64,000 bases of DNA from an uncultured bacterium (lineage in GTDB: Bacteria; Acidobacteriota; Thermoanaerobaculia; Multivoradales; JAHZIX01), in NCBI GenBank assembly GCA_965368975.1, contig CBDUPA010000001.1, forward strand, positions 96,001 to 160,000, in the 5' to 3' direction. Below the pieces are notes generated by a model. The model did not search any database. It saw only the letters and a list, made by a program, of their open reading frames with translations, and was not told where the DNA came from. Shown piece by piece: positions 10,487-34,681 of this stretch (its first letter is position 1; each line of letters begins with the position of its first letter). A program made the position numbers and the translations under genes.

Positions 10487-10534
10487 ATACACCGTCCGAT
10501 GCTTGATTTGTCCTGTCTTGGAGGAGGTAGACCC

Positions 10535-13500: not shown

Positions 13501-16500
13501 CAAGGACTTGGTGGCGTTCGTCGTGGTGGTGCCGGAGCAGGCTCCACAGGCCGCGGCCACCGCAGCTTCCCTGCGTGATGCCCTTGGCGCCGACCTGCCC
13601 GAGTACATGGTGCCGGCGCGCATCGTGTTTCTCGACGAGTTGCCGGTCAACGCCAATGGCAAAGCTGATCGCCAAGCCCTGATCCGCCGCCTGGACGAGG
13701 AAGCTGCCAGCACCCGGGACCTGCGCCACGAGGTCGCGGCAGGAGCCGTCGGCGCTGCTGGTGCCGATGGGGAGGAGGCGTCGACGGGTACCTCTGGACC
13801 GGGCCACCAGGTGGTTACGGCGTCTGTCGCCACCGACCCGACGCTGCGCGGCCGCCTGGTGCGCATCGTCTCCGAGATCTGGTGCGACCTCTTGGGTCTT
13901 GACAGCGTGCGTCCGGGGGACAATTTTTTCGAGATCGGTGGCCACTCGCTGCTGCTCGCCGAGATGCAGCAGCTGCTGCAGCCGCGCCTTGATGAGTTGC
14001 AGCTGCAGCATCGCCTGAGCGCTGTCGAGTTGCTGCAGCACACCACGGTCAACAGCCTGGCGGCACACCTGACGTCGATGGCGCCGGCAGCTGCCGTGGC
14101 GACGGCTGCCGCCAGTAGCCCAGCACCGGTGACCGGGACGACGGCCGCCGCCGACGAGCCGATCGCCATCGTCGGCATGGCGGGGCGCTTCCCCGGCGCT
14201 GCCTCGGTGGACGAGTTCTGGAGCAACCTGCGCCAGGGGGTCGAGTCGATCACCTTCTTCGAGCGCGACGAGATCGAACTCGGGGGTCTGCTCGATGCCG
14301 ACCCCGATCACCCAGACTTTGTGGGCGCGGGTGGCGTGCTCGACGACATCGAGGGGTTCGACGCCGAGCTCTTCGGCTACAACCCGCGTGAAGCGGAAAT
14401 CCTCGACCCGCAGCAGCGCCTGTTCCTCGAACAGGCTTGGCGCGCTCTCGAGGCGGCGGCGCTCGATCCGAGCAGCTACCCGGGGCGCATCGGTGTTTTC
14501 GGCGGCGTCGGGGCGAGCACCTACTGGCAGTTCAACCTGGCCCTCAATCCGCAGTTGATGCGCTCGGTGGGTGGCTTCCAGGCTCTGGTCGGCAACGACA
14601 AGGACTTCCTGCCGACACGCGTCGCCTACAAGCTGGGCCTCACCGGACCGGCGGTCAACGTGCAGACGGCGTGTTCGACCTCGCTGGTCGCTGTGCACCT
14701 GGCGTGCGAGAGCCTGCGCCGCGGTGAGTGTGAGGTGGCGATGGCCGGCGGTGCCGCGGTACGCGTGCCGCACAAGAGTGGCTATGTCTATGCGCCGGGC
14801 ATGATCCTGTCGCGCGACGGTCACTGCCGGGCCTTCGACGCTGACGCCAGCGGTACGGTGGGCGGCAACGGCGTCGCCCTGGTGGTGCTCAAGCCGCTGA
14901 GCCGGGCGCTGGCGGACGGCGACCATGTGCACGCGGTGATCCGCGGCAGTGCAATCAACAACGATGGCGACCACAAGCTCGGCTATACCGCGCCCAGTGT
15001 CGAGGGGCAGGCCACCGTCATCCGCGCCGCCCTCGAGGCGGCGCAGGTCGACCCGGGCACGATCGGCTACGTCGAGGCCCACGGCACGGGCACCGAGCTG
15101 GGCGATCCGATCGAAGTCGAAGCCCTACACCGAGCCTGGCGCTCGCGGACACCGGATCTGCCGGCCGGGACTTGCGCGCTCGGCGCGGTCAAGACCAACG
15201 TCGGCCACTTGGACGCCGCGGCCGGCGTTACCGGTTTGATCAAGGCGGCACTGGCGATCGAGCACGGTGAACTGCCGCCCAGCCTCAATTTTCAGGCCCC
15301 CAATCCCAAGATCGACTTTGCCTCGACGCCCTTCTACGTCAATCGCGAACTGACGTCCTGGCGCATGGCGCCGGGGCCGGCCGCGCAGGAACTGGCCGCG
15401 CCGCGCCGGGCGGCGGTGAGTTCTTTCGGCATCGGTGGCACCAACGTCCACGCCATTCTCGAACAGGCACCGGCGGCGGTGACTTCGCAGCCGTTCGGAC
15501 GCGTCGACGCGCGGCCGGCACGCCTGCTGGTGTTGTCGGCGCACAAGCCCGCCGTGCTGGAGACCGCGCAGACGCAGCTGGCTGCTTGGCTCGAAGCGCA
15601 TCCGGACGCCGACCTGGCCGACGTCGCCTTCACGCTGCAAACCGGTCGTCGACCGCTCGAACATCGTCGAGCCTTGGTGGTGCGGGATCGCGGCGACGCC
15701 CTGGCGGTCCTGCGTGGCGAGGGCGAGGCGGTCGAGCGCCTGCTGGCCGGCCGTGGCGCCGGGCCGCGCCCGGTGGCGTTCTTGTTCCCGGGCCAGGGTT
15801 CGCAGCATCCCGGCATGGGGCGTGAGCTGTACGACATCGAGCCCGTGTTCCGGCAGGTGGTCGACGTCTGTGCCGAGGGGCTGCAGGCGCACATCGGTCT
15901 GGATCTACGCGACCTCCTCTTCCCGCCCTTGCAGGATGCGACCTCGCAGCAAGGGGTCTCGCCGGAGGCCGCCGCCCAGCGCTTGCGCGACACGCGTTTC
16001 ACGCAGCCGGCGCTGTTCACCATCGAGTTGGCCTGGGCGCGGCTGTGGCAGAGCTGGGGGGTCGAGCCGGTGGCGATGCTGGGTCACAGCATTGGTGAGT
16101 TCGTGGCCGCTCATCTGGCCGGGGTCTTCGACCTCGAGACCGCGCTGTCGCTGGTGGCGGCGCGCGGTGGCTTGATGGCCGAGCTCGAACCCGGCGCCAT
16201 GCTGAGTGTCGAACTGGACGAGGAGGTCTTGCGCGGCCGTCTGCAGTTGGCACCGGGCCTGGACTTGGCGGCGCTCAATGCGTCGGGGCTCTGCGTGGTG
16301 TCCGGACCGGCCGCCGAGGTCGACGCTTTCGCCGAGAGCCTGGACGCTGACGGTATCGAGAACCGGCGTCTGCACACCTCGCACGCTTTCCACTCGCGCT
16401 CGATGGAGCCTGCCGTGGCCGCCTTCCGCACGCTGGTGGCGAGCCGCCAGCTGAGCCCGCCGACCCGCCCCTTCATCTCCAACGTGACCGGGACCTGGAT

Positions 16501-19465: not shown

Positions 19466-22400
19466 GTGATCGACCGCGTCCGGAGCAGCTGTCTCCGGCA
19501 GAGAAGAGAGAGCTGTTGGCGAAGTTGATGCGTCAGCGTGACCAGGGTGGCCCGCGCTTTCATCCACTTTCCTTCGCCCAGCAGCGACTGTGGTTCCTCG
19601 ATCGCCTCGATCCTTCGGGCCGTCACCATCGCATCTACCAGGCGTTCCAGCTGCGTGGCGCCTTGCGACCGCAGTTCCTGCACCGCGCGCTGCAGGCCAT
19701 CGTCGACCGGCACGACAGTCTGCGCACCTTCTTCGTCACCACTGCGGGCAAGCCGGCCGCGGCGGTGGCACCAGGGCTGCGCCTGCGTCTGCCCGTGCTC
19801 GACCTGCACCTGACAACGTGGGCAAAGCCGGGCGACGCGCAGCAGACGGAAGAAGCCGTCCTGCAACGAGCGCTCGAGCGCCCCTTTCAGCTCGACCGCG
19901 GGCCGCTGCTGCGCTGCACTCTGCTGCGCTGCTCCGAGGACCGGCACCTGCTGCTGGTGGAGATGCACCACATCATTTCCGATGCCTGGTCGGTCGGTGT
20001 GCTGCTGCGCGAGCTGGCGGCACTCTACGATGCACAGGTGCGCGCCGCGACCAGCCAGCAAGCACCGGCCCCAGGTCTGGCCGACGCTCTGCCACCGCTG
20101 CGCGCGCAGTATCCGAGCTACGCTCGCTGGCAGCGCCAGCGCCTGCAGGGGGACTTGCTGGCCGAGAACTTGGCCTGGTGGCGCCAGCAGCTGGCGGCGC
20201 TGCCAGCGCTGCTCGAGTTGCCGCTCGATCGACCGCGACCGCCGGTACAGAGCCACCATGGCGGCGTGCTGCCGGTGCACTGGCCGGCGCACCTCTACGA
20301 GCGCGTGCGCGAGCTGGGGCGGCGCAACGGTGCTAGTGCCTTCGTCGTGCTGCTGGCCGCCTTCCAGGCCTTCCTCGGCCGCCTGACCGGCGCCCGCGAC
20401 CTCGCCGTTGGCACACCGGTGGCGGGCCGCGACCGCTCGGAGCTGGAAGGGCTGATCGGCTTCTTCATCAACAGCTTGGTGCTGCGCGCCAATCTGCAGG
20501 GCGACTCCCCGGCCGGCCCTGGCTTCGACAGCTTCCTGCGGCGCACGCGCGACGCCTTCCTGGGCGCGTTCGACCACTCCCAGGTACCCTTCGATCGGCT
20601 GGTCGAAGAACTCAAGCCCGAGCGCAACCTGAGCTACCATCCGCTGTACCAGGTCGACTTCCAGCTACAGGCCGAGCCGGTGCCGCCGCTGGAGCTGAGT
20701 GGCCTGGTGATCGAGCCGCGCTTCCTCGACGCCGGTCTCACTGGTTTCGACCTTGCGGTGCAGCTGGAGGCGCAGCCGGACGGCTCGGTCGCCGGTTGGG
20801 TCCAGCACGGCACCGCCATCCTCGACCGCAGCACGGTCGAGCGCTGGCTGCGCGGCTACCGCACGCTGGTCGAGTCGGCCCTCGACACTCCCGCCGGTTG
20901 CCTGTTCGAGCTGTCCGTGCTGACCGCAGCCGAGCGGCACCAGCTGGTGCGCGAGTGGAACGACACCGAAACGGCGTTCGAGGACCTCTTCGAGGATCCG
21001 TCGCACGGTGCCTTCGTGCGCGAGACGCTGCTGCACCGGGCCTTTGAAGCGCAGGCGGCGGCAGTACCCGACGCGCCGGCACTGACCTTCCGCGGCGACA
21101 CCTGGAGCTACCGTCAGCTCGACCAGCGGGCCAATCGCCTGGCCCACTACCTGCGGCGCCTCGGCGTCAGACGGGAAACCCGCGTCGCGGTGTGCCTGGA
21201 GCGCAGCCACGAACTGGTGGTAGCCCTCTACGCCGTGCTCAAGGCCGGCGGCGCCTACGTGCCGGTGGATCCTGGCTATCCCGCCGAGCGCCTGGAGTTC
21301 CTGCTGCGCGACGCCGCGGCGCCAGTTCTGCTGACGCAAGAGCGCCTGCTTGGGGATCTGGGGCTCGAGGATCAGGGCGTCGAGGGCCTGTGCCTGGATC
21401 GCGACTGGCCGCGCATCGAGCAGGCCGTCGACGCGACACGCGCCGAGGAACCGCCGCGCGTCGAGCTACAGCCGGAGAACGCCGCCTACGTCATCTACAC
21501 CTCGGGCTCGACCGGCCAGCCCAAGGGCGCCGTCAACCGTCACCTGAGCATCGACAACCGCCTGGCCTGGATGCAGCGGGCCTACCCGCTCGACGCCAGC
21601 GACGTGGTGCTGCAGAAGACACCGTTCAGCTTCGACGTCTCGGTGTGGGAGTTCTTCTGGCCGCTGCGCCAGGGCGCCCGCCTGGTGATGGCTGAACCCG
21701 GCGGCCACCAGGATCCGGCGTACTTGATTCGCACCGTCGCCGCCGAGGGCGTCACGACGATGCACTTCGTGCCCTCGATGCTGCAGTTGTTCGTCGATCA
21801 CCCGCGAGCCGCCGACGCGAACGCGGCGCTGCGGCGGGTCTTCTGCAGTGGAGAAGCACTACCGCCGGAGCTGGTGCAGCGTTTCTTCGAACGCGTCGGG
21901 GTGCGTCCAGGGCAGACTGCGATCGAGCTGCACAACCTCTACGGTCCGACCGAGGCGGCGGTCGACGTCACGTACGAACCGTGTTCTCCGGGCAAGATCG
22001 GCCACTCGGTGGCGATCGGCCGGCCAGTGGCCAACACCAGCGTGGTGGTGCTCGACTCAGCACGCCGGCCGCTGCCGATCGGCGTCGCCGGTGAGCTGTT
22101 CCTGGGCGGTGTGCAACTGGCGCGCGGCTACCACCGACGTCCCAGCCTGACGGCCCAGCGCTTCGTGCCCGACCCGCTGGCCACTTCTGGACCCGGAAGT
22201 CGCCTCTACGCCACCGGCGATGAGACGCGGCTGCTGCCCGATGGCCGCGTCGAGTTCCTCGGGCGCATCGACTTCCAGGTCAAGCTGCGCGGTCTGCGCA
22301 TCGAGCTGGGTGAGATCGAGGCGGCGCTGCGCACGGCCGAGGTCGACGGACGAACTCTGGTGCACGAGGCACTGGTCTTGGTGCTCGACGCAGCCTCCGG

Positions 22401-25400
22401 TGAGGGTCACAAGGACCAGCGGTTGGTCGCCTACGTGCAGCCGGAAGGCCTGCCGGCCGAGCGCTTCGACGCCGCACCGGTGCTGGTACAGCTGCGCGAG
22501 CGCCTGCCCGAGTACATGGTGCCGTCGCAGCTGATCGCCCTCGACGCCTGGCCGCTGACCGCCAACGGCAAGCTCGATCGCAAGGCGTTGATGCAGCGGC
22601 CCCTACCCAGGCAAGAGGCGGCGTCGGCGTCGGACCAGACGGCAAGCCCCGCCGGGCACCCGAGCGGCGTGCCGGAAGACCTGGAAGCGAGCATCACCGC
22701 TATCTGGCGCGACGTGCTGGGTGTCGACAAGATCGGTGCCGAGCAGAGCTTCTTCGACCTCGGCGGTCACTCGTTGTTGCTGGCGCAGGTGCAGGCGCGC
22801 CTGCTCGAAGACCTGGGACGCGAGCTACCCCTGGTCGAGCTCTTCCAGCACCCGACGGTGCGCTCGTTGGCCCGTCACCTCAGTCCGCGCGGTGCCGAGG
22901 CCGTGCAGGCGCGCGTCAGCCGGCGCGGCGACGAGGACGCCGATGTCGCGGTGATTGGCGTCGCCGGTCGCTTCCCGGGTGCCGCCGATGTCGACCAGCT
23001 GTGGCACAACCTCGAGCAGGCGGTCGAGAGCATCGCCTTCTTCGAGCGCGACGAGGTGGAGGAAAGCCCTTTCGGCTTCGGCGACCCCGACAACCCGAAC
23101 TTCGTGCTTGCCGGCGGCCTGCTCGACGACCCCGATCTCTTCGACGCCGACTTCTTCGGCTACACACCGCGCGAGGCGCAGCTGCTCGATCCGCAGCAGC
23201 GCCTGTTCCTGGAAGCGTGCTGGCAGCTGCTGGAGCGTGCCGGCATCGACCCCGCGCGCTTCGCCGGCCGCGTCGGCGTCTTCGGCGGCACCGGGATCAG
23301 CGCCTACTTCAGCTACAACTTGATGAGCCGGCCCGACATCGTCGCCTCGGCCGGTGCCTTCCAGTTGTTGACCTCGTCGGACAAGGATTTCCTGCCCACG
23401 CGTGTGTCCTACAAGTTCAACCTGCGCGGACCGGCGGTCAACGTCCAGACCGCCTGCTCGACCTCCCTGGTCGCCGCGCACCTGGCCTATGAAAGTCTGC
23501 TGCGCGGCGAGTGCGACGTCGCCCTGGCCGGTGGTGTCAGTCTGCGCGTGCCGCAGCGCACCGGCTACCTCTATCAGCCCGGCATGATCCTGTCGCCGGA
23601 CGGTCACTGCCGCGCCTTCGACGCCGATGCCGCCGGCACGATCTTGGGCAGCGGCGTGGCGGTACTGGCCTTCAAGCGGCTGTCGGCGGCGCTCGCGGAT
23701 GGTGACCCCGTGCTGGCGGTGATCAAGGGTTCGGCGATCAACAACGACGGCTCGGACAAGGTTGGTTTCACCGCTCCCAGCGTCGACGGCCAGACCCAGG
23801 TGATCACCGACGCCCTGGCCAATGCCGGCGTCGACGCGCGTTCGATCGGCTATGTCGAGGCGCACGGCACGGGCACCGACCTGGGCGATCCGATCGAGGT
23901 GGCGGCGCTGACCCAGGCGTACCGCGCGCACACCGACGAGCGCGGCTTCTGTGCCCTCGGCTCGCTGAAGACCAACGTCGGGCACCTGGATACCGCGGCT
24001 GGCGCCGCCAGCTTGATCAAGACGGTGCTCAGCCTGCAGCACGCGGTGATCCCTGCCAGCCTGCACTACCAGCAGCCGAACCCGCAGATCGACTTCGACG
24101 CCAGTCCCTTCTTCGTCGCCGCCGAAACGCGTGCGTGGCCGGCACCGTCCGACGGCACCCCGCGGCGGGCGGGCGTTAGCTCCTTCGGCATCGGTGGCAC
24201 CAACGTCCACATGGTGCTCGAAGAGCCGCCGGCGCGGTCGCCCGGGGGGCAGGGGGCGTCCGGGTCGTCGCGGTCAGCACAGCTGCTCGTGCTGTCGGCC
24301 CGCTCCGACACCGCTCTCGAGGCCGCCACGGAGCGGCTGCACGGCTTCCTCGAAGCGCACCCCGAGGTGCCGTTGGCCGACGTCGCCTGGACGCTGCAGC
24401 ACGGTCGCCATCGCTTCGACTACCGGCGGGCTCTGGTGGTGCACGATCACGAGGACGCGCTGGCGGTGCTCTGCGGCGAGCACGGCAAGCGCCTGATCGG
24501 TCGTCACGACGGGGAGAGCGGCCGGCCCGTCGCCTTCCTGTTCCCTGGGCAGGGCGCCCAGTATCCCGGCATGGGCCGGCAGCTCTACGCGTTGGAAGCT
24601 GCCTACCGCGATGCCGTCGACGCGTGCGCCGAGCTGCTCCAGCCCCACCTGGCGGACACGGACTCCGACGGAGATATTCGCACGCTTCTGATGCCGCCGC
24701 TCGAAGACCTGGCGAGCGAGGCCGCTGAGCGGCTGGCTGCCGATCGCCTGGCTGCTGATCGACTGCGCCAGACACGTTTCGCGCAACCGGCATTGTTCGT
24801 CGTCGAGTACGCACTGGCGCAGCTGTGGCGCAGCTGGGGCATCGAGCCGCGCGCGCTGATCGGGCACTCGATTGGCGAGTATGTCGCCGCTTGCCTGGCC
24901 GGCGTCTTGACGCTGCCCGAGGCTCTGCGCCTGGTGGCGGCGCGCGGCCGCTTGATGCAAGGCCTGCCGGCCGGGGCCATGCTCAGCGTACCGTGCTCGG
25001 AGGCCGACCTGGAGGCGAGGCTGGCGAGTTGGCGCGATCAAGGCCGTCATACCGACGTCTGCGTCGCGACGATCAATGCGCCAGATCTGTGTGTGCTCGC
25101 CGGACCGATTCCGTCGATCGACGCCGTGCAGGCCGATCTGGAGGGCGAAGGTCTGGAAGTGCGCCGCTTGCACACCTCGCACGCCTTCCACTCGGCGATG
25201 ATGGAGCCGGTACTGTCGGCGTTCGGCGCCGAAGTGAAGAAGGCACAGCTGCAGGCGCCACGTCTGCCCTTCGTCTCCAACGTCACCGGCACTTGGATCC
25301 GCGCCGAGGAGGCGACCGATGCGGGCTATTGGGTGCGCCATCTGCGGCACGCGGTGCGCTTCGGCGACGGTGCAGCGCTGCTGCTCGAAGACGAGCGACT

Positions 25401-28400
25401 GGCACTGATCGAAGTCGGTCCCGGGCGGGGGCTGCGTACCCTGCTGCGCCGTCAGCCGGCGTTCCAGCAGTCGGACCCCAAGGAGGCCGGTCGCGTCCTG
25501 GCCGGCTCGCTGCGGGGTCCCAAGGACGAGGCCGCCGATCTCGAGTTCCTCCTGACCGAGCTGAGCCGCCTGTGGCTGGGCGGCGTCGATGTCGACTGGA
25601 GGGCGTTCCGGGGGCAGGAGACCCGGCACTCCGTCATCCTGCCGACCTACCCTTTCGAGCGCAAACGCCACTGGGTCGAACCGGGGGCCGGTCCCCAGCG
25701 GCTCGTGACGGGTGGTGCGACGGATCGACTGCCGCGGCTGGGCGATTGGGTCCACGTGCCGGCCTGGCGGCAGCAGCCACTGGCGGCGCGTGCCGCCGGT
25801 GTCGAGCGCCGGCGCGGTCCCTGGTTGGTGCTAGCCTTCGCCGGCGCTGCGCGCGACGCGTCCACCAAGCTGGCCGAGACGCTGGTGGCGGCCTTGCGGC
25901 GGCATGGTCACGAGGCTGACGTGCGCCTGCTGGAGAGTGCCAGCGTGCAGAGTGCCAGCGTGGACAGTCTTGGTGTGGACGGTATCAGCGCGAGTCCGGA
26001 CGCAGCCACCTGGCGCGCCGAGTTCGACGCAAGGGTCGGCGATGACAGCCTGCCGGCCGGCATTGTCGATCTACGTCCCTTCTGGTCCGCCGACCACCAG
26101 GAAGATGGACCCAAGGCCACCTCTGAGGCCGTTTCCGAGGCGAGCTTCCATGGTCCGCTGCAACTCCTGCAGGCCTTCGCCGGCTGCCTCGGTGAGCGGG
26201 GTACAGAGGCGGACAGCACGGCTCCGGGGCACCTCTACCTGGCGGTCAGCCGTGGCGCGCTGGCGATCGACGAGACCGAGGTGATGGCGGTCGAGCCCGA
26301 GCGCAGTGCGCTGCTCGGTCTGCTCACCGTCACCCAGCAGGAGAATCCGGACCTCGCCTGCCGCTTGCTCGATGTCGGCGCCACGAGCGGTGGCGCACAG
26401 GCGCTGGCCGAGATGCTGGTGCAGGAGCTGGAACGTGGCGACGAACTGGTGGTTGCCCGCCGTGGGCGCAGGGGGCGCTGGCTGCCCTCGCCGCGGTGTC
26501 TGCCCCTGCCGCCCGCCGAGCAGCGACCCGCGCTGCTGCGCGAGCAAGGGGTCTATCTGCTCACCGGCGGTCTGGGTGGTGTCGGCTTGGTGCTGGCGCG
26601 CTACCTGGCCCAGCGGGTCCCAGGCGTTCGCCTGGCACTCCTTGGACGCAGCGGCTTGCCGCCGCGCGCACACTGGGACGCTTTCGAGGCGGAGCACCAG
26701 GCGAACGACCGCCAGAGTCGAGCGATCGAGGCGGTGCGCGAGTTGGAGCAGCAGGGCGCCGAGGTCGAGGTGGTGGTCGCCGATGTGGCTGATCGGCAGG
26801 CGATGGCCGAGGCACTGGCCGCCGTGCGTCGACGTTTCGGGGCTCTCCATGGCGTGATCCATGCAGCGGGCCTGTCCGGGGAAGCTGCCTTCCGGCCCCT
26901 TGGCCAGCTGGACCGTGCTGCCTGTGAAGCGCAGTTCCGGCCCAAGATCACCGGCACGCGGGTGCTCGCCGAGCTCCTGCACGGGGGCTCGACTGCCGAT
27001 CCAGCCGCAGATCCCGCTCCCGACTTCGTCATGGTGACCTCGTCGATCTCCACCGTGCTGGGTGGTATTGGTTTCGCTGCTTACGCCGCTGCCAATCTCG
27101 GGCAAGATGCCCTTGTCCAGGACCAGGAAGCCCAGCAACAAGCCAGAGAAGCGGCGCCAGCGAGCACCACGCGCTGGCTGAGCATCGATTGGGACGCCTG
27201 GAATCTGGAAGCGGTGGCAGGCACGCAGTTGGCGCTGACGCCAGAAGAAGGTCAGGAACTGCTCGACCGCGTGCTGGCGCATGCCAGCAGTGGAGGAGAG
27301 GGGCACGTCGTCATCTCGGTCGGCGCCCTGGCGGCACGCATGCAGCGTTGGTGCACCGTCGAAGAGCTGCGTCGAGCCCGCGACGAACATCGTCGGGAAG
27401 CTGCCTCGGCGGCGTCCGGCGATGGGGACCGGCCGCAACTGGACACCGCCTACGTGGCGCCGCGCAGCGATGCCGAGACGGCCCTGGCGGCGATCTGGAG
27501 CGAGCTGCTGGGCATCGACCGCATCGGCATCCACGATGACTTCTTCGAGCTTGGCGGTCACTCGCTGCTGGTGACCCAGTTGCTGACCCGCATCCGGGAC
27601 CAGCTCGGTGCCGAGCTGGAAATGGCGATGGTCTTCTCGCGCCCGACAGTCGCCGAGCTGGCCGTCAGCCTGGCAGACGAGCTGCCGGCGGGCACGCGTC
27701 AGCTCGAGGCACCACCGATCGTACCGGTGCCGCGCGACCAGCCGCTGCGCTTGTCCTTTGGCCAGGAGCGCTTCTGGTTCCTGCAGCGTCTAGATCCCGA
27801 GAGCATCGCCTACAATCTGCCGGCGGCCATCCGCCTGCTCGGCCGGCTGGACGTGAGGGCACTGCAACTTTCCTTCGACGCCATCGCTTGCCGCCACGAG
27901 ATGCTGCGCACGCGCTTCGTGGAACGAGACGGCAAGCCGTTCCAGCTCGTCGAGCCTCGCCTGCGCTACCCGTTGCCAGTGGTCGACCTCAGTGCTCTCG
28001 AAGCCGCACGCCGTGAGCAGCTGGTCTATGCCCTCGCCTTCCGCTACGCCGACGATCCCTTCGATCTTGCGGCTCTGCCGCTGCTGCGCAACTGCCTGCT
28101 GCGGCTAGCGGTCGGCGAGCACACCTTCCTGACCGTCGGGCATCACATCATCTCCGATGGTTGGTCGGGCATTCTCTTCGTCCAGGAGCTGGGGGAGCAC
28201 TATCGCACCTTCCACGGGAAGCAGTCTGCAGACAGTGGACCTGCCAGCGTCGAGATGCCCGAGGCGTTGCCGTTGCAGTATGGCGATTATGCCGTCTGGC
28301 AGCGCGATTGGTTGCAGGGCGAGGTGCTGCAACAGCAGATCGACTTCTGGTGCCGCCAGCTGGAGCCGCCACCGCCGGCGCTGCGCCTGCCCTACGACCG

Positions 28401-30645
28401 GCCGCGCGTCAGTGGGGAGACGGCGCCCGCCGGGCGACTGTCGACCCGTGTCCAAGCGCCCGTGCTGTCGAAGCTACGCAGCCTGGCGCTGAACTTCTCT
28501 GCACGCGAGGGCGAAGCGCAGGCGCACGGCATCACCTTGTTCATGATCCTGATGGCAGCCTACTTCACGCTGCTGTATCGCTACAGCGGTCAGAGTGACC
28601 TCGCCGTCGGTACTCCGATCGCCAATCGTCACCGCTCCGGGACCGAGGGCCTGGTGGGCTTGTTCATCAATACGCTGGTCTTGCGGTTGCATCTCGACGC
28701 GGCGTCGTCGGATGGTGGTGCGCTTCGGTTCCCGCGCCTGGTCCAGCAGCTGCAGCAGGTCTCGCTCGCCGCCTACGATCAGCAGGACTTGCCGTTCGAC
28801 GAGCTGATCAAGCGACTGCCGGCAGACGGCGGCGAGCGGCGTACGCAGCGATCGCTGTTCACCACCATGCTCGCCTTCAACCACGAGCCGCCGCCGGCTC
28901 TGCAGCTACCGGAGTTGGAGATCGGCCTGGTCGACCTCGATCAGCGGCGTGTCGAAGCGATGTACGACTTCGTCCTCGGCATGACCGACTTCGGCGATCA
29001 TCTCTACGTTTCGGTCGAGTACGATCGCTCGCGCTTCGACGCGACGTCGGCGCAGCGCTTCAGCGAGGCCTACCTGCGCGTGCTGGGAGAGATCGCCACG
29101 GACGCCGAGCGCAGCCTCATCGAATTGCCGGTGCTAGGGGCCGGTGAGCGTCACCAGTTGCTGGTCGAGAACCGGCGCGCAGATGCAGCCTGGGTCGGAC
29201 GCCACCGCGACCGGTTGCCGTCGCAGTGGAGCGGACAAGCCTTGCGAGGCGTCTACGTGCTCGATCCCCAAGCCGGCCTGACGCCCATGGGGGCCGTCGG
29301 TGAGTTGTACGTCGAGGCCGAGGACCAGCCGTCGCTGACGCCGGTACCCGAGGGGCAGCCCGTACGACCCCGCTTCGCACCCGACCTGCAGCTCTGGCCG
29401 ACCGGTGTACGAGTGCAGCGGCGGGCCAGCGGCGAGCTGCAATTGCCTGGCGAAGCCAACTATCCTTTCGTCGACCTCGGCCGGCGCGCTCGCGGCAGTG
29501 CCGACAACGAAGAAGAGCGGCGGCAGGAAGAACAGGCGGCCGATCAAGTGTGGAGCCAGGTCAGCAGCCGGCAGGAGAAGCTCTCAGCCAAGAAGAAGGC
29601 CATGCTCGCAGCCCGCTTGCGCGGTGCCCTGCGCTCCAAGACCGCGAATGCCGAGGCGGCTGGATCGGCACGACCGAAGACCACGGCAGGAGCTTCTGCG
29701 CCGTCCCGCGTGCGCGACCTGGAGGCCGTCAAGGCGGCCCTGGCACGCAAGCGTGCCGCCGCCGCCCAAATGCGCTCAGAGGACTCCCTGCTCCTCAAGA
29801 TCCAGCCGGCCGGAGAGCAGCCGGCCGTAGCCTGTGTACATGCGATCGCCGGTGACGTCACCTGCTATCTGGCGCTGGCCGACCATCTCGGTCGAGACCG
29901 GCCGGTCTACGGTCTGCAAGCTGAGGGTCTCGATGGCAGCCGCCAACCGCTGCGCCGCGTCGAGGACATGGCTGCCCGGTACCTGGACATCCTCCGACGG
30001 GAGCAGCCGGCAGGCCCTTACCTGCTCGTCGGCTGGTCCATGGGTGGGGTCATCGCGCTGGAAATGGCGCAGCAGCTGGGCGCGGCCGGCGAGAACGTGC
30101 CGTTGCTCGTGCTGCTGGAACCGTCTGTACCCGGAATCCAGGTGCCGCTGGACGATACCGGCATCGTCGAGTCGCTGGCTCGTGACCTCGAGAGCGCTCT
30201 CGACCAGCCGCTGGATGTGACCCTCGAGCAGCTGCTGGAGAAAGATCTGGAAACTCAGCTGACCACATTGTTCGAACAGGTCAAGCGCCACGGTCTGCCG
30301 TTCTTCGATTTCGACCGCTCGGCGCTGTCCTCACTCTTCCGCCTCTACAAGGCCAACGTCGCGGCCCTGCAGGACTACCGCCCACAGCCCTACGCCGGCC
30401 GCAGCGCCGTGTTCATCGCCCGCGAGCGGCCGCCGGCCACCGAGCCGGAGCCGTCCGATTTCTGGACCGGGGGGTTACTACAGGATCACCAGCGGGTCGA
30501 CGTCGGCGGCGGCCACACCTCGATGCTGCAAGAGCCGCACGTACGGGATCTGGCGCGCCGTTTGACGCGACTTTTCACCCAGGCGGCCGAGGATCTTGAC
30601 CCTGCAGCCAAGGACGCTGATGCCGCGGAGTCAATTCGTGATTGA
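19462..30645 (+). CDS. Hybrid NRPS-PKS termination protein: C-A(Ser)-PCP-KS-AT(malonyl)-KR-ACP-C-(A remnant)-TE
   Basis: C HHIISDAWS. A code DVWHFSLVDK. PCP LGGHSLL. KS VQTACSTS. AT GHSIG/HAFH. KR TGGLGGVG...YAAAN. Carrier LGGHSLL. Second C HHIISDGWS. TE GWSMGG and GGHTSML. ATGA overlap with the upstream gene. Confidence 0.93.
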   Translation: MSDRPRPEQLSPAEKRELLAKLMRQRDQGGPRFHPLSFAQQRLWFLDRLDPSGRHHRIYQAFQLRGALRPQFLHRALQAIVDRHDSLRTFFVTTAGKPAAAVAPGLRLRLPVLDLHLTTWAKPGDAQQTEEAVLQRALERPFQLDRGPLLRCTLLRCSEDRHLLLVEMHHIISDAWSVGVLLRELAALYDAQVRAATSQQAPAPGLADALPPLRAQYPSYARWQRQRLQGDLLAENLAWWRQQLAALPALLELPLDRPRPPVQSHHGGVLPVHWPAHLYERVRELGRRNGASAFVVLLAAFQAFLGRLTGARDLAVGTPVAGRDRSELEGLIGFFINSLVLRANLQGDSPAGPGFDSFLRRTRDAFLGAFDHSQVPFDRLVEELKPERNLSYHPLYQVDFQLQAEPVPPLELSGLVIEPRFLDAGLTGFDLAVQLEAQPDGSVAGWVQHGTAILDRSTVERWLRGYRTLVESALDTPAGCLFELSVLTAAERHQLVREWNDTETAFEDLFEDPSHGAFVRETLLHRAFEAQAAAVPDAPALTFRGDTWSYRQLDQRANRLAHYLRRLGVRRETRVAVCLERSHELVVALYAVLKAGGAYVPVDPGYPAERLEFLLRDAAAPVLLTQERLLGDLGLEDQGVEGLCLDRDWPRIEQAVDATRAEEPPRVELQPENAAYVIYTSGSTGQPKGAVNRHLSIDNRLAWMQRAYPLDASDVVLQKTPFSFDVSVWEFFWPLRQGARLVMAEPGGHQDPAYLIRTVAAEGVTTMHFVPSMLQLFVDHPRAADANAALRRVFCSGEALPPELVQRFFERVGVRPGQTAIELHNLYGPTEAAVDVTYEPCSPGKIGHSVAIGRPVANTSVVVLDSARRPLPIGVAGELFLGGVQLARGYHRRPSLTAQRFVPDPLATSGPGSRLYATGDETRLLPDGRVEFLGRIDFQVKLRGLRIELGEIEAALRTAEVDGRTLVHEALVLVLDAASGEGHKDQRLVAYVQPEGLPAERFDAAPVLVQLRERLPEYMVPSQLIALDAWPLTANGKLDRKALMQRPLPRQEAASASDQTASPAGHPSGVPEDLEASITAIWRDVLGVDKIGAEQSFFDLGGHSLLLAQVQARLLEDLGRELPLVELFQHPTVRSLARHLSPRGAEAVQARVSRRGDEDADVAVIGVAGRFPGAADVDQLWHNLEQAVESIAFFERDEVEESPFGFGDPDNPNFVLAGGLLDDPDLFDADFFGYTPREAQLLDPQQRLFLEACWQLLERAGIDPARFAGRVGVFGGTGISAYFSYNLMSRPDIVASAGAFQLLTSSDKDFLPTRVSYKFNLRGPAVNVQTACSTSLVAAHLAYESLLRGECDVALAGGVSLRVPQRTGYLYQPGMILSPDGHCRAFDADAAGTILGSGVAVLAFKRLSAALADGDPVLAVIKGSAINNDGSDKVGFTAPSVDGQTQVITDALANAGVDARSIGYVEAHGTGTDLGDPIEVAALTQAYRAHTDERGFCALGSLKTNVGHLDTAAGAASLIKTVLSLQHAVIPASLHYQQPNPQIDFDASPFFVAAETRAWPAPSDGTPRRAGVSSFGIGGTNVHMVLEEPPARSPGGQGASGSSRSAQLLVLSARSDTALEAATERLHGFLEAHPEVPLADVAWTLQHGRHRFDYRRALVVHDHEDALAVLCGEHGKRLIGRHDGESGRPVAFLFPGQGAQYPGMGRQLYALEAAYRDAVDACAELLQPHLADTDSDGDIRTLLMPPLEDLASEAAERLAADRLAADRLRQTRFAQPALFVVEYALAQLWRSWGIEPRALIGHSIGEYVAACLAGVLTLPEALRLVAARGRLMQGLPAGAMLSVPCSEADLEARLASWRDQGRHTDVCVATINAPDLCVLAGPIPSIDAVQADLEGEGLEVRRLHTSHAFHSAMMEPVLSAFGAEVKKAQLQAPRLPFVSNVTGTWIRAEEATDAGYWVRHLRHAVRFGDGAALLLEDERLALIEVGPGRGLRTLLRRQPAFQQSDPKEAGRVLAGSLRGPKDEAADLEFLLTELSRLWLGGVDVDWRAFRGQETRHSVILPTYPFERKRHWVEPGAGPQRLVTGGATDRLPRLGDWVHVPAWRQQPLAARAAGVERRRGPWLVLAFAGAARDASTKLAETLVAALRRHGHEADVRLLESASVQSASVDSLGVDGISASPDAATWRAEFDARVGDDSLPAGIVDLRPFWSADHQEDGPKATSEAVSEASFHGPLQLLQAFAGCLGERGTEADSTAPGHLYLAVSRGALAIDETEVMAVEPERSALLGLLTVTQQENPDLACRLLDVGATSGGAQALAEMLVQELERGDELVVARRGRRGRWLPSPRCLPLPPAEQRPALLREQGVYLLTGGLGGVGLVLARYLAQRVPGVRLALLGRSGLPPRAHWDAFEAEHQANDRQSRAIEAVRELEQQGAEVEVVVADVADRQAMAEALAAVRRRFGALHGVIHAAGLSGEAAFRPLGQLDRAACEAQFRPKITGTRVLAELLHGGSTADPAADPAPDFVMVTSSISTVLGGIGFAAYAAANLGQDALVQDQEAQQQAREAAPASTTRWLSIDWDAWNLEAVAGTQLALTPEEGQELLDRVLAHASSGGEGHVVISVGALAARMQRWCTVEELRRARDEHRREAASAASGDGDRPQLDTAYVAPRSDAETALAAIWSELLGIDRIGIHDDFFELGGHSLLVTQLLTRIRDQLGAELEMAMVFSRPTVAELAVSLADELPAGTRQLEAPPIVPVPRDQPLRLSFGQERFWFLQRLDPESIAYNLPAAIRLLGRLDVRALQLSFDAIACRHEMLRTRFVERDGKPFQLVEPRLRYPLPVVDLSALEAARREQLVYALAFRYADDPFDLAALPLLRNCLLRLAVGEHTFLTVGHHIISDGWSGILFVQELGEHYRTFHGKQSADSGPASVEMPEALPLQYGDYAVWQRDWLQGEVLQQQIDFWCRQLEPPPPALRLPYDRPRVSGETAPAGRLSTRVQAPVLSKLRSLALNFSAREGEAQAHGITLFMILMAAYFTLLYRYSGQSDLAVGTPIANRHRSGTEGLVGLFINTLVLRLHLDAASSDGGALRFPRLVQQLQQVSLAAYDQQDLPFDELIKRLPADGGERRTQRSLFTTMLAFNHEPPPALQLPELEIGLVDLDQRRVEAMYDFVLGMTDFGDHLYVSVEYDRSRFDATSAQRFSEAYLRVLGEIATDAERSLIELPVLGAGERHQLLVENRRADAAWVGRHRDRLPSQWSGQALRGVYVLDPQAGLTPMGAVGELYVEAEDQPSLTPVPEGQPVRPRFAPDLQLWPTGVRVQRRASGELQLPGEANYPFVDLGRRARGSADNEEERRQEEQAADQVWSQVSSRQEKLSAKKKAMLAARLRGALRSKTANAEAAGSARPKTTAGASAPSRVRDLEAVKAALARKRAAAAQMRSEDSLLLKIQPAGEQPAVACVHAIAGDVTCYLALADHLGRDRPVYGLQAEGLDGSRQPLRRVEDMAARYLDILRREQPAGPYLLVGWSMGGVIALEMAQQLGAAGENVPLLVLLEPSVPGIQVPLDDTGIVESLARDLESALDQPLDVTLEQLLEKDLETQLTTLFEQVKRHGLPFFDFDRSALSSLFRLYKANVAALQDYRPQPYAGRSAVFIARERPPATEPEPSDFWTGGLLQDHQRVDVGGGHTSMLQEPHVRDLARRLTRLFTQAAEDLDPAAKDADAAESIRD

Positions 30646-30766: not shown

Positions 30767-32083
30767 ATGTTAGATGGGAGTGTACGTGGGAGCATAACTG
30801 TCGTGGTTCTGATTGGCCTTCTGGTCTGGGCGCCGTGCGCCTGGGCAGAAGAGCTCGGAACCATCGACACGGCTGCCTACCTCGCTAGTCAGAGTCCGCT
30901 TCTAAGTGTAGCTTCCGACGACGGAGGTTCCGGTTCCGATGCCGCCAGCTATTGGGAAGACCACTTCTCGTTGCACGGCTACCTGACCACGGCCTACGCG
31001 GATGCCAGTTTCGACGACAACGCAACGGGTCCGTCATCCGAGGAAGTCATCATCGGTATCCCCGAGGATGGCACCTGGGAGTATCGTATCGCCGCCTTGC
31101 AGTTGCGCTACGATCCGCACCCCAAGCACACCTTCCTGGTGCAGCTGGCGCATCGCAAATTCGACGACAGTCCGCTGGAGACCGCGGACGACGACATCAA
31201 CCTGGACTGGGCCTTTTACCAGTACCGCTTCACCGATCACAGCTCGTTGCGTCTCGGTCGCTTCGCGGTGCCTCAGGGCATCTTCAACGAGATCCGCGAC
31301 GTGGGTGTGATCCTGCCGTTCTTCCGCCCGTCCTACAACTTCTACCGTGAAGGTGGTTTCGTCAGCGAGACCATCGACGGCATCAGCCTGTCGCACCAGT
31401 TCAACTCCGATGGCGACTGGAGTCTGGATGCCGACGTCTACTACGGCGAGTACACCCTGCTCGAGCAGGGCACGAACCTGGCCGGTGACCAGGAAGCCGA
31501 AGAAGTGGACGTCGAGGATGCCTACGGTTTCCAGGTGTGGCTCAACACCCCGGTTCCTGGGTTGCGCTTTGGTGGTGGCTACCAAGAGTACACGGTCATC
31601 GGTTCGCTCAACGGCGGCAGCGACCTCAACCTCGCTGACTCCGACTGGGAGACGTGGTTGGTGTCGGCCGACGGCAACTTTGATCGCTGGGTGGCACGTG
31701 CCGAGTTCAAGCGCATCAAGTTCCCGATCAACAACCCCTCCTTCCCAGACGGTGAGGCGGAAATCGATGCCTACTACTTCCAGCTAGGCTTCCACATCAC
31801 GCCGCAGCTCAGCATCTACGCCCAGTCGGAATACAGCGACGGGCGGCAGAGCGCTCCCATCCTGTTCGAGGATGAGGACTTCAACCAACGCCAGGACGAC
31901 GGCATTTCTTTGGTCTACGCTTTCCGGCCCGACATCGTGCTGAAGGCCGAGTATCACGAGACGTCGTACGACTTGGGAAGCGCCGCGCTCGTCTTCCCGC
32001 CGACCGGTGGCTTCCTGGTAGATATCATCCTCGAGGAGCTCGAGAGCGAGTACAGCATCATCAGCCTGTCGCTGAGCTTCTGA
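30767..32083 (+). CDS. Outer-membrane beta-barrel / porin-like protein
   Basis: RBS AAAGGAGA before ATG 30767. Signal peptide (...LLVWAPCAWA-EE). Alternating aromatic/hydrophobic strands (LDWAFYQYRF, YYFQLGFHI). Ends in ISLSLSF with terminal Phe. Confidence 0.75.
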   Translation: MLDGSVRGSITVVVLIGLLVWAPCAWAEELGTIDTAAYLASQSPLLSVASDDGGSGSDAASYWEDHFSLHGYLTTAYADASFDDNATGPSSEEVIIGIPEDGTWEYRIAALQLRYDPHPKHTFLVQLAHRKFDDSPLETADDDINLDWAFYQYRFTDHSSLRLGRFAVPQGIFNEIRDVGVILPFFRPSYNFYREGGFVSETIDGISLSHQFNSDGDWSLDADVYYGEYTLLEQGTNLAGDQEAEEVDVEDAYGFQVWLNTPVPGLRFGGGYQEYTVIGSLNGGSDLNLADSDWETWLVSADGNFDRWVARAEFKRIKFPINNPSFPDGEAEIDAYYFQLGFHITPQLSIYAQSEYSDGRQSAPILFEDEDFNQRQDDGISLVYAFRPDIVLKAEYHETSYDLGSAALVFPPTGGFLVDIILEELESEYSIISLSLSF

Positions 32084-32121
32084 GTCGGTTCCCGCTTCGC
32101 GGGCTTGCCGAGCAAGGTCAG

Positions 32122-32161
32122 CGCGGAGGTCACCCTAGGGTGTCCTCCGCGTTTGTCGTTT
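32122..32161 (+). terminator. Probable intrinsic terminator after the porin gene
   Basis: CGCGGAGG-T-CACCCTAGGGTG-T-CCTCCGCG hairpin followed by TTTGTCGTTT. Confidence 0.6.
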
Positions 32162-32230
32162 CAGGGCCGATTCCGGGAGTCGTGACAGCGTTCATTCATC
32201 CAATGCATTCCTTCGGGAGGGATCGACTCC

Positions 32231-34681
32231 ATGGAAACCCTACTCCAGGACCTTCGCTTCACCTGGCGCCAGCAGCTGCGCAATCCGGCCTTCTTCTTGG
32301 TGGCCGTCCTGACCCTGGCTCTCGGAATTGGCGCGACGACCGCCATCTTCACCGTCGTCAACGCCATCATCCTGCGGCCCCTGCCGTATCCGCAGCCCGA
32401 CCGACTGGTCCAGGTCTACGAGGAACATCCTGGGCGAGGTTTGCAGTACTTCTCGGTCTCGGCGGCCAACTACGCCGACTGGCGAAGGTTGAACGATTCG
32501 TTCGAGTCGATGGCCGCGTACTCGCTCTACGACAAGAACGGCTTCACTCTCACGAGCGGTGAGCAGCCCGAGCCGGTCGTCAGTGTCGGGGTTACCGGCG
32601 AGTTCTTCCAGCTCTTCGGCGTGGCCCCTCTACTCGGGCGCACCTTTGTTCCGGAAGAAGATCGTCCGGGCAACGACCGCGTCACGGTGCTGGCGTACGA
32701 TTTCTGGCAGCGTCGTTTCGGTGGCGATCCCGATGTTGTGAACAACCGGGTCGAGCTGGACCGCGAAAGCTACGAAGTGATCGGCATCATGCCGGCTCAG
32801 TTCCGTTTTCCCGCCGCACCTGAGGTCGATCTCTGGGTGCCCTTGGGGTTGCCGCCGGAGGCCTGGCAGAGCCGGACAATCCGGCCGCTCAACGTCCAGG
32901 CACGCCTCAAGGTGGGGGTCTCGTTGTCGCAAGCGCGGCAGGAGATGAAGCGCATCGCTGACAACCTGCGAACCCAGTACCCCGCTGCCAATGAAGGGTT
33001 CACCGCCGACGTCTATCGCATGCAAGACCGCATGGTGAGCAATGCGAGGACGCTACTGTTGGTGCTTGCCGGTAGTGTCGTGCTGGTGCTGTTGATCGCC
33101 TGCGTCAACGTCGCGAACTTGCTGCTCGCACGTGGAGCGGTACGGCAACGGGAGCTTGGATTGCGCTTGGCACTGGGAGCCGGCGTCCGTCGCCTGCTAC
33201 GGCAGCTGCTCACGGAAGGCGTCGTGCTGGCTCTGTGCGGCGGTTTGCTGGGGTTGATGCTGGCGCATGTGTTGGTGCGCTTGATGGTCACCCGTACCGG
33301 GGCCTACCTGCCGCGTGCCGACGAAATCGCGATCGATCCCACGGTTCTGCTCTTTGCGCTGCTGCTGGCCCTGGTCACCGGTGTCGTGTTCAGTCTTGTA
33401 CCGGCGCTACAGACGGTGATGGCCATCCGGCTCACCGAAGTCGTGGGCGAAGGAGGTCGCAGCGGTACATCTGGGCGCTCGCAGGCCTGGTTGCGCAAGG
33501 GCCTGGTGATCGTCGAGTTGACCCTTGCCCTGGTGCTCTTGATCGGTGCCAGCCTCATGTTGCGCAGCTTTGGCCAGTTGCAGCAGGTCGATCCTGGCTT
33601 CGAGCCCGATTCCATCCTGTCGTTCCAGATCACCTTGCCAGGAGCCAAGTATCGCAGCCCGAGCGAGCAGAACTCCTTTGTTCGACAACTCGTCGAGCGG
33701 CTAGAAGGCCTGCCCGGCGTCGAGCGCGCTGCGACGATCAATCGTCTGCCCTTGAGCAGCCTGCCCTTCCTCTGGGACTTCTTCGAAGAGGGCTCGCCAC
33801 CGGCCTCCCTCGATCAGGTGCAGCTGGCAGACTTTCGAAATGCTTCCTCGGCCTACTTCGAGGCTCTCGGAATCCCCGTGGTGCAGGGCCGCGGCTTCAG
33901 CGATCAAGATCGCGAGGGAGCGGTGCCGGTGCTCGTGATCAACGAGGCGATGCAGCGTCAGTTCTGGCCTGATGGAGCCGTTCTCGGTAAGCGGCTGGAG
34001 ATCGGCAACCTGGTGGCCGAGCAGCTGCCTGGCTTACCGATGACTGTCGAGATCGTCGGTGTGGTGGGTGATGTGCACCAGTTCCAGCTCAGTCAGCCAC
34101 CGACTCCACTGATGTACCTGCCCTTCGAGCAGTACCCGTTCGCCACCTTCTTTGTGGCCCTGGAAACCCGCGGTGCTCCGAAGCAGGCATTGTCCGCGGT
34201 GCGCGGCGCAGTGCGTGAACTCGATCCATTCGTGCCGCTGTCCGACGTGCAGACCCTGGAAGAGCGGGTCGACGGTTCCATCTCAGGGCAGCGCCTGGGG
34301 ATCTATCTCCTGGGAGGATTTGCGGCGGTGGCCTTGTTCCTGGCCGCGGTCGGCATCTACGGCGTGATTTCCTACTCGGTGGCGCAGCGCACGAAAGAAA
34401 TGGGAATCCGCACGGCCCTCGGTGCTGAACCTGCCGGTCTAACGCGCCTTGTCGTGGGGCAAGGGTTGCGGCTGGCGGCCTACGGCCTGGGCTTGGGCCT
34501 GCTCCTGGCTGCCGTGGCCAGCGGTCTGTTGCGCAGCTTGCTGTTCGGCGTCAGTGGCTTCGATCCTCTGGCTTTCGCGGCCAGTGCACTGATCCTGGCC
34601 GCGGTCGCAGCACTCGCCTGTCTGGTACCGGCGCTGAGAGCGGCCCGCGTCGACCCGATGGTCGCGCTGCGCTCGGAGTGA
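32231..34681 (+). CDS. ABC transporter permease, duplicated MacB/FtsX type (ADOP-like)
   Basis: METLLQDLRF...LTLALGIGATTAIFTVVN, LLIACVNVANLLLARG..RQRELGLRLALGAG, second half QRTKEMGIRTALGA, C-terminus ARVDPMVALRSE. 816 aa. RBS GGGAGG. Confidence 0.92.
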   Translation: METLLQDLRFTWRQQLRNPAFFLVAVLTLALGIGATTAIFTVVNAIILRPLPYPQPDRLVQVYEEHPGRGLQYFSVSAANYADWRRLNDSFESMAAYSLYDKNGFTLTSGEQPEPVVSVGVTGEFFQLFGVAPLLGRTFVPEEDRPGNDRVTVLAYDFWQRRFGGDPDVVNNRVELDRESYEVIGIMPAQFRFPAAPEVDLWVPLGLPPEAWQSRTIRPLNVQARLKVGVSLSQARQEMKRIADNLRTQYPAANEGFTADVYRMQDRMVSNARTLLLVLAGSVVLVLLIACVNVANLLLARGAVRQRELGLRLALGAGVRRLLRQLLTEGVVLALCGGLLGLMLAHVLVRLMVTRTGAYLPRADEIAIDPTVLLFALLLALVTGVVFSLVPALQTVMAIRLTEVVGEGGRSGTSGRSQAWLRKGLVIVELTLALVLLIGASLMLRSFGQLQQVDPGFEPDSILSFQITLPGAKYRSPSEQNSFVRQLVERLEGLPGVERAATINRLPLSSLPFLWDFFEEGSPPASLDQVQLADFRNASSAYFEALGIPVVQGRGFSDQDREGAVPVLVINEAMQRQFWPDGAVLGKRLEIGNLVAEQLPGLPMTVEIVGVVGDVHQFQLSQPPTPLMYLPFEQYPFATFFVALETRGAPKQALSAVRGAVRELDPFVPLSDVQTLEERVDGSISGQRLGIYLLGGFAAVALFLAAVGIYGVISYSVAQRTKEMGIRTALGAEPAGLTRLVVGQGLRLAAYGLGLGLLLAAVASGLLRSLLFGVSGFDPLAFAASALILAAVAALACLVPALRAARVDPMVALRSE

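Follow-up and report, generated by a model that had tools for sequence, protein, structure and literature searches.

Assembly lines of nonribosomal peptide synthetases (NRPSs) and polyketide synthases (PKSs) are read, and engineered, by the rule that each condensation (C) domain has a carrier behind it and that the thioesterase (TE) follows the last carrier. In the syringomycin synthetase SyrE, the terminal module reportedly reads C-T-TE and depends for its missing adenylation (A) domain on SyrB1 (A-T), which works in trans with the shuttle SyrC. The X domain of glycopeptide synthetases, found in a PCP-X-TE arrangement (PCP: peptidyl carrier protein), has a degenerate active site and recruits P450s. 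Enacyloxin is said to be released by a stand-alone C domain, Bamb_5915, with the carrier Bamb_5917, in a docking-mediated trans condensation, and nonlinear (type C) NRPSs, such as myxochelin MxcG and that of coelichelin, reportedly acylate a single Lys or Orn on both of its amines. PMC8949500 makes a general statement on nonlinear lines and the branched products they give. Here we analyze a PKS-NRPS gene, g4, in a 64,000-nucleotide stretch of DNA (hereafter the window) from an uncultured bacterium of the Acidobacteriota (Thermoanaerobaculia; Multivoradales; assembly GCA_965368975.1, contig CBDUPA010000001.1, positions 96,001 to 160,000 of the forward strand). g4 ends in a C domain (C*), an internal docking-type helix and a TE. 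Between C* and TE a carrier is not detectable, and neither is a full adenylation domain (A1-A10); judging from sequence and complex prediction, the missing carrier is probably lent in trans by a second enzyme encoded nearby, g1.

Like SyrE, g4 has a termination module without its own A domain, in SyrE supplied with the last building block by a separate A-T protein, and the C-A relic-PCP-TE end of a relative from another family (G015) matches that layout. SyrE, however, retains its carrier and a transferase moves the residue, whereas g4 has no carrier but a docking helix instead, and the last PCP of an entire two-module NRPS would be borrowed. The likeness to glycopeptide PCP-X-TE is a C-fold domain between the last cis carrier and the TE; the difference is that C* retains HHIISDGWS, and no P450 gene appeared among the window and cluster open reading frames (ORFs) scanned with Pfam, although no search aimed at P450s was made. 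Helical PKS/NRPS docking domains pair an acidic helix, located behind a carrier, with a basic amphipathic helix of the LSxxxK/RxxLLxxL type. g4 and its neighbour g3 open with such basic helices, and acidic tails of this kind end g1, g2 and g3. The helix studied here differs in being internal, after C and before TE, and in the split versions of relatives one copy opens a free TE and another closes the NRPS. As in enacyloxin release, C* would act on a carrier arriving via a short docking element rather than a covalent link, but enacyloxin uses a beta-hairpin docking domain with a short linear motif and a small-molecule acceptor, and has neither a TE nor a second assembly line. With nonlinear NRPSs the locus would share a branched product from two acylations of one carrier-bound diamino acid; the known examples reuse one C domain or module, whereas here two separately initiated multi-module chains would converge via C*-helix-TE. 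We found no published description of the C*-helix-TE layout in a search that covered mostly abstracts, with subscription journals and supplements outside it, and the carrier-less C-docking helix-TE wiring seems to be undescribed so far.

g4 is a single ORF of 3727 aa by ORF call and translation (coordinates in Table 1). Pfam, run on the whole protein, gives the order C-A-PCP-KS-AT-KR-ACP-C-...-TE (KS: ketosynthase, AT: acyltransferase, KR: ketoreductase, ACP: acyl carrier protein), with two Condensation stretches (the best at aa 2763-3234), one AMP-binding match (528-891), two PP-binding stretches and Thioesterase at 3456-3701. The cis ACP ahead of C* is 46% identical to the PCP of the g4 module in a self-comparison. 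C* matches PF00668 at E 1.3e-83 on the cut-out, over profile positions 6-456 of 456, and its closest solved relatives are Txo1/Txo2 and TycC, C domains that form peptide bonds. An initial annotation of this DNA had described an intact C domain followed by a TE with its Ser and His motifs, and both lie where it had placed them: HHIISDGWS is at aa 2894-2902 (nt 28141-28167), and the TE (PF00975, E 5.2e-27) carries Ser in GWSMGG (nt 30031-30048) and His in GGGHTSML (nt 30505-30528). These two residues (S183 and H342 in the numbering of alignment A2) are invariant across the family alignment. At nt 30118-30120, which we take to be the position where type I TEs usually carry the catalytic Asp (~Ser+27), the alignment has Glu in five of the six family genomes and Gly in G002.

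The gap between C* and TE spans ~220 residues and holds an A6/A7 relic and a 30-aa helix motif. Across aa 3202-3479 of g4, Pfam and NCBIfam gave no PP-binding and no AMP-binding match at E<=10, the sole match being Connexin43 at E 0.13. We built a hidden Markov model (HMM) from 38 PCP and ACP domains of the clusters under study; on the six family gap regions it scored at most 1.3 bits (E>=0.16, Z=7), and on the C-A*-PCP-TE gap of G015, our positive control, 98.8 bits. No G[GA]xS-type phosphopantetheine motif was found in aa 3201-3470. The initial annotation had claimed that no PCP lies between C and TE, leaving the terminal C without a cis acceptor carrier, and had suggested an HMM scan as the check; Pfam, NCBIfam and our own HMM all bear this out.

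A second HMM, built from 24 A domains, matches all six gaps at the same model positions, ~337-362, corresponding to the strand before and into A6. The match in the window has E 5e-4 (Z=7, positions 339-362), and that in the G001 orthologue has E 1.2e-8, its alignment reaching A7 (positions 337-410); the remaining four have E 4e-3, 8.5e-3, 0.13 and 0.15, so that four of the six are significant and the last two are not. As judged from these profile matches, the A-domain relic is real, in keeping with the earlier proposal of a remnant with A6- and A7-like pieces. In the window these pieces are VYVLDPQAGLTPMGAVGELYV (nt 29251-29313) and LWPTGVRVQRRASGELQL (nt 29392-29445).

Downstream of the relic lies the helix, with the core SRQEKLSAKKKAMLAARLRG (nt 29566-29625). 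Its motif, E..W..V.(D/S)R...LS......L...L.G, has W, R, LS, L, L and G invariant in six of six genomes. The initial annotation had likened this helix to N-terminal docking helices, and its sequence does resemble those that open g3 and g4, as well as those of another-family genome, G217; by sequence similarity, it is a member of the ordinary N-terminal docking-helix family of these bacteria. A second helix predicted in the linker (Table 1), whose residues 3417-3427 take part in the modelled contact with g1, is missing from G001, G003, G004 and G005 in the alignment. An AlphaFold2 model of C-gap-TE from a 4-row alignment had a mean predicted local distance difference test (pLDDT) score of 54.8, below 50 in the gap, and served for helix positions only; a word-based homologue search with the gap region recovered the query alone. 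That the helix is a decayed PCP is a weakly supported alternative: in MAFFT and BLAST alignments it falls on PCP helices 1-2 of G015 and G021, and the carrier HMM gives sub-threshold matches to helix 1 in three of the six gaps. The helix is present without an A relic in the other family, which fits a docking-helix origin at least equally.

The C*-relic-helix-TE end is present in all six genomes of the family (G000-G005, at least three genera), at 36-45% identity across ~800-970 residues. In an order-wide search the six members scored 471-493 bits with full coverage, the next best match 273 bits. Mean pairwise identity is 0.50 in C*, 0.21 in the A relic, 0.15 in the stretch before the helix, 0.43 in the helix motif, 0.08 in the helix-to-TE linker and 0.42 in the TE. 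Because the helix is conserved like the TE between flanks at 0.08-0.15, and the layout occurs in six of six genomes, recent decay is not the explanation. HHxxxDGW(S/T) is intact in every C* examined, from the six family genomes and 11 other-family loci. In G015 the relic has boundaries identical to those of the window family, and its layout looks, by this comparison, like an intermediate form. A whole-library HMM search with the C-gap-TE alignment returned giant multi-module NRPSs as its best 150 matches, through summed C scores, and was uninformative about layout.

The same cassette occurs in another family of the order, where many TE matches from the order-wide search extend over the helix part of the profile. 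We chose 12 of these with a match start at model position <=25, favouring top scores and short ORFs. The helix stands directly ahead of the TE in all 12, and 11 of them have PCP-C immediately before it and no carrier separating C from TE, the twelfth being cut by a contig end. About half of these cassettes are fused (PCP-C*-helix-TE) and about half are split; in the split version of G217, the NRPS ends ...C*-RRDRLAARLSKLTDAQREAMEKRLRGGGA, and a stop codon is followed by a 336-aa TE ORF that opens with its own helix. At locus L036 (G217:C1:1840600-1844500), helix copies on the NRPS end and on the free TE are separated by one in-frame stop codon. A free C-helix-TE protein also exists (P0213), and stand-alone helix-TE proteins number 521 in the database at E<=1e-20 and are common in metagenomes; they are named only "thioesterase domain-containing protein" and come from metagenome-assembled genomes (MAGs) of Thermoanaerobaculia or Acidobacteriota.

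We mapped ten other-family clusters, an eleventh locus (G236b) being too broken to read; the domain maps rest on BLAST against the window's own domains, except for some Pfam-checked proteins, and several relatives are MAGs with frame breaks. In type 1 clusters (G106, G217a, G165a, G236a and G239a), one subunit ends A-PCP+tail, and the next opens with an A domain, without a C, and finishes PCP-C*-helix-TE; the distance from the previous stop to the A domain is ~75-86 nt in G106 and G217. In type 2 clusters (G217b, G165b and G193, with fused forms in G169 and G213), a lipid-primed subunit ends PCP-C*-helix-TE, and the line behind the cassette begins with an A domain that has no C and finishes A-PCP+tail. 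All ten mapped clusters have a subunit ending PCP+tail and a C-less A chain start, the latter clear in six and blurred by frame breaks in four. The window matches type 2, but its partner g1 lies upstream and has a dead C instead of no C; the G217b helix, QRAEMSSRKETLSVSKRELLEKRLRG, is comparable to the internal helix of the window. Two other arrangements were seen among the collected sequences. The frame-broken loci L068-L069 (G236:C6:71501-111500) encode two subunits that end C-helix, of which one lacks a TE and precedes a subunit that opens with KS, and also a single-module protein, helix-C-A-PCP+tail. P0153 (1954 aa) opens with a docking helix, ...LSPEKRELLLRRL..., and has a cyanobacteria-like C-A-PCP followed by three tandem TEs; it is the top helix-TE profile match because its TE scores add up.

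In G000, G002, G003 and G005 the gene order is Csolo (a stand-alone C protein), g1, g2, g3, g4, an outer-membrane barrel protein and a MacB-type permease. g1 has the layout C0-A-PCP-E-C-A-PCP with a tail (E: epimerization domain), the full gene beginning outside the window at G000:C1:89482. In its first C domain, C0, LP(A/S)LCAD-type residues replace HHxxxDG in six of six orthologues, and by this sequence criterion C0 is dead and unable to condense. No N-terminal docking helix is visible in g1, and the protein ends in a PCP without a TE or a downstream C. Behind this PCP comes a helix extension, AAEIASLILEQLEQ in the window and SLILD.LE in others, with SLIL(D/E)xLE in five of five complete orthologues. 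g1 is thus without a working first C or a release domain, and g4 has a C and a TE but no carrier.

Complex prediction of g4 helix-TE (6-row alignment) with g1 PCP2+tail (5-row alignment) gave an ipSAE interface score of 0.61 (runs 0.60, 0.65 and 0.61), with the best of three controls at 0.00. At least 50% of contacts were common to the runs, and partner pLDDT was at least 59. Of 80 solved complexes 58 attain the mark used for docking scores, as do 2 of 110 mismatched pairs, a calibration that is rough here since our own alignments were used. On the g4 side, the predicted interface comprises aa 3353-3391, which is the helix (W3364, R3370, L3374 and L3382 are among the best pairs), and aa 3417-3427; on the g1 side, it comprises PCP2 helix 4 and the conserved tail, together with portions of PCP helix 1 and a small number of residues from the far acidic end. 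This differs from the textbook PCP-TE contact, and the model supports binding of the g1 tail to the internal helix of g4. The initial annotation had proposed pairing the helix with the acidic tail of g1: the partner agrees with our prediction, while the contact is not chiefly with the far acidic end but mainly with the post-PCP extension AEIASLILEQLEQ.

Two further comparisons concern what C* would accept. The A domains of the tail-bearing modules have the signature D-x-E-(L/V/A)-(I/V)-(G/A)-(T/S)-.., with Glu at position 239 in 16 of 18, as extracted by a rule of our own based on the customary motif positions. In Table 2 of PMC3207962, DAESIGSV is the BacB-M1 Lys signature, and the G002 signature DAEVIGSV is identical to it at seven of eight positions; the first A domain of g1, DVWHVSLV, is likewise identical at seven of eight to the Ser signature in that table. 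A FastTree tree was built with 140 C-like domains taken from every collected protein; one of its clades (23 tips, support 0.885) is made up of two kinds of domain only: C* of the window family and of type 2 (11 tips from 10 genes, with G005 counted twice and the G001 fragment too short to include), and 12 C domains that precede tail-bearing modules. Because C* clusters with the latter, it would be the kind of C whose acceptor is a tail-bearing module. g1 C0 forms its own clade, and the second C of g1 groups with Csolo.

The anatomy, its conservation and the co-occurrence patterns are observed, and the docking is predicted by a model; which carrier donates, which accepts, which amine attacks and what happens at the TE we infer as follows. 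We favour convergent assembly, in which the last PCP of g1 docks in trans, C* joins two chains and the TE releases the product; on the sequence and model evidence, we rate this a serious possibility that falls a little short of an even chance. C*-helix-TE would be a termination unit that lost its own A domain and carrier and borrows both. The lipid-primed chain made by g2, g3 and g4 would finish on the cis ACP, as donor. g1, with dead C0, Ser-type A, PCP, E, C, A, PCP and tail, would start its own short peptide, because its first C cannot condense, and its last PCP, via the helix extension behind it, would dock on the internal basic helix of g4 and take the position of the lost cis PCP. The A relic together with the retained PCP of G015, the location of the helix at the former PCP site and the kinship of C* with the C domains of tail-bearing modules point to the docked PCP as a substitute for the cis acceptor carrier that was lost. 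C* would then link the chain on the ACP to an amine of the docked peptide, most likely the second amine of the last residue, as in relatives; the docked chain of type 1 relatives would offer no free amine except one on a side chain, in agreement with the Lys-like signature. In the window genome, the free N-terminal Ser amine may be an equally good candidate acceptor. The adjoining TE would release or cyclise the joined product.

Several points weigh against this scheme. All support for it is in silico, and the complex score rests on shallow alignments of our own (6 and 5 rows); close cousins of the true partner, with related tails, can also attain the docking mark. Both the tail and the internal helix are of the ordinary docking family of these bacteria, and in G217 a tail of this type is used at a regular junction, where its partner is an N-terminal helix plus C, so that docking alone is silent on whether the PCP is donor or acceptor. 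The last module of g1 has its own intact C, so that two C domains would share one acceptor carrier. The g1 A2 of the window has Gln at position 239, one of the two exceptions among 18, and a diamino-acid branch point is therefore doubtful for the window genome. Type 1 C* domains lie outside the 23-tip clade. Finally, Csolo and a divergent NRPS outside the window fit no role in any model, and they weaken the counting of tails against helices. A pigeonhole count of three tails for three helices was dropped once the divergent NRPS gave a fourth tail.

The main rival is a re-entrant linear line, which we think unlikely. Here C* would acylate Ser on PCP1 of g1, replacing dead C0; the chain would run through g1 normally (E, C, second module), and the final PCP would dock on the helix to reach the TE, giving a linear or TE-cyclised lipo-chain-D-Ser-Xaa. 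It relies on canonical chemistry, the acceptor being an aminoacyl alpha-amine; with C0 dead, the count of one working C per loaded module comes out right; and no diamino acid is needed, which suits the Gln-239 of A2 in the window. NRPS subunits ending in C followed by a subunit starting with A are also common, and two relatives fuse the partner behind the TE (C*-helix-TE-A-T...), which is readable as C-A-T with an inserted TE. However, C* groups with the C domains before tail-bearing modules rather than with those before first-module-type A domains, and no docking element is visible at the g1 N-terminus. Type 1 is awkward on two counts: the PCP upstream of C* must skip C* to reach the TE, though the C* lineage there is a different one, and the docked PCP becomes a donor on a helix placed after C. 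A "permuted junction C", in which the docked PCP is the donor, was considered for type 1 clusters and rejected as a general model, as it would leave the C* of the window family without an acceptor.

It is also conceivable, if improbable, that C* is a scaffold or relic and that the TE unloads the g4 ACP directly across it. On this view C* would have a structural role or work on the chain attached to the ACP, the helix would serve dimerisation or an intramolecular contact, and the product of g1 would be a different one. A carrier, then a C-like domain, then a TE is a workable geometry known from the glycopeptide X domain; the relic and the lost PCP show the decay of a former module, and in G217 the NRPS end and the separate TE each carry a helix, which could mean helix-helix pairing. 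This is hard to reconcile with an HHxxxDGW(S/T) motif intact in every C*, with a C* conserved like the TE (0.50 vs 0.42) and with the specific helix-tail contact that the model predicts, and it leaves g1 in a syntenic cluster with a dead starter C and no release domain. The initial annotation had offered two acceptors for C*, a peptide on a docked NRPS or a free amine. The docked peptide agrees with the g1 features, the predicted contact, the relatives and the C* tree, while the free amine explains none of these correlations. We consider it very improbable that C* uses a free small amine or water as acceptor for the ACP-bound chain, with the TE as a proofreading or back-up hydrolase. A cis acceptor is indeed not present, and amine-capping terminal C domains exist in VibH, rhabdopeptide and zeamine-type systems, but these are not known to have a TE behind the C. 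The eight downstream ORFs scanned, to nt 47585, showed no gene that would supply an amine, and this reading leaves unexplained why the helix is conserved, why g1 has a dead C0 and no TE, why relatives have C-less chains and how C* is placed in the tree.

The coordinates of the features discussed are collected in Table 1. The barrel and permease pair (30768..34681) lies directly behind the TE, is syntenic in G003 and G005 and, from its sequence features, represents probable export genes.

Table 1. Features of the g4 locus and its neighbours (nucleotide positions within the window)
Feature	Position	Strand	Basis
g1, 3' end: A2, PCP2 (~1567-1755), tail AAEIASLILEQLEQM (1747-1791), long acidic end (to 2118)	1..2121	+	Pfam, tail alignment
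g2, starter subunit: FAAL-like x2, ACP, KS-AT-MT-ACP (FAAL: fatty acyl-AMP ligase, MT: methyltransferase), C-terminal docking tail	2147..10486	+	Pfam, domain map, termini
g3: N-terminal docking helix, C-A-PCP-KS-AT-ACP-KR, C-terminal docking tail	10499..19465	+	Pfam, domain map, termini
g4, PKS-NRPS: N-terminal docking helix, C-A-PCP-KS-AT-KR-ACP-C*-A relic-helix-TE	19462..30645	+	ORF, translation, Pfam
cis ACP immediately 5' of C*, presumed donor carrier	27472..27696	+	second PP-binding stretch
Terminal condensation domain C*	27748..29163	+	Pfam PF00668
A-domain relic, A6- and A7-like pieces	29251..29445	+	own A-domain HMM; no Pfam AMP-binding match
Internal docking-type helix AADQVWSQVSSRQEKLSAKKKAMLAARLRG	29536..29625	+	conservation; predicted interface with g1 tail
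Second helix, non-conserved, within Ala/Lys/Arg-rich linker	29704..29769	+	predicted, low confidence
Thioesterase	29827..30564	+	Pfam PF00975, alignment
Outer-membrane beta-barrel-like protein	30768-32083	+	signal peptide, C-terminal Phe (...SLSF)
MacB-type permease	32231-34681	+	Pfam MacB_PCD/FtsX

Other observations concern the neighbouring genes. g2 opens with two tandem FAAL/DIP2-like AMP-binding domains ahead of its first carrier, and it has a C-methyltransferase where the orthologues of G002, G003 and G005 give a KR match. The ACP of g3 (aa 2199-2270) lies between AT and KR, with no carrier after KR; the orthologues in G003 and G005 read KS-AT-KR-ACP. Csolo, outside the window at G000:C1:87651-89369 (L016:11651-13372) and syntenic in four genomes, has SH(L)(V/I)xDAWC in place of HHxxxDG and a conserved basic C-terminal tail, RRRRDSN..LR.TKPI.V. 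The divergent NRPS, also outside the window on the reverse strand at G000:C1:78032-87286 (L016:2029-11286), reads FAAL-ACP-C-A(Ser-type)-T-C-A and ends ~50 residues past its last A domain in a docking-like tail, ...LQALLARLESMSDEEAEALL..., without a carrier; the stretch C1:66001-78100 of G000 has no detectable carrier, C, A or TE. A further very long ORF, of 2286 aa, occupies 57141-63998 of the window, its 3' end open at the window edge.

It is tempting to generalize from the window to its relatives. Thermoanaerobaculia-type Acidobacteriota may use a dedicated mobile C-helix-TE cassette, fused or split, that merges two NRPS/PKS chains, each initiated independently, on a single docked carrier module that typically has a Lys-like signature, to give branched or lariat lipopeptides; the window would be one member, with its partner line upstream and its starter C dead. 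We put this forward tentatively, as possible rather than probable. The conserved and widespread C-helix-TE cassette breaks the rule by which assembly lines are read and appears to swap the covalent carrier for a docking contact. If this is true, it would be a new termination and convergence logic, one that genome-mining tools would mispredict by ending the line at the ACP and leaving g1 an orphan, and a natural portable C-dock-TE part for joining two synthetases. It would also point to a family of unknown branched lipopeptides in uncultured Acidobacteriota.

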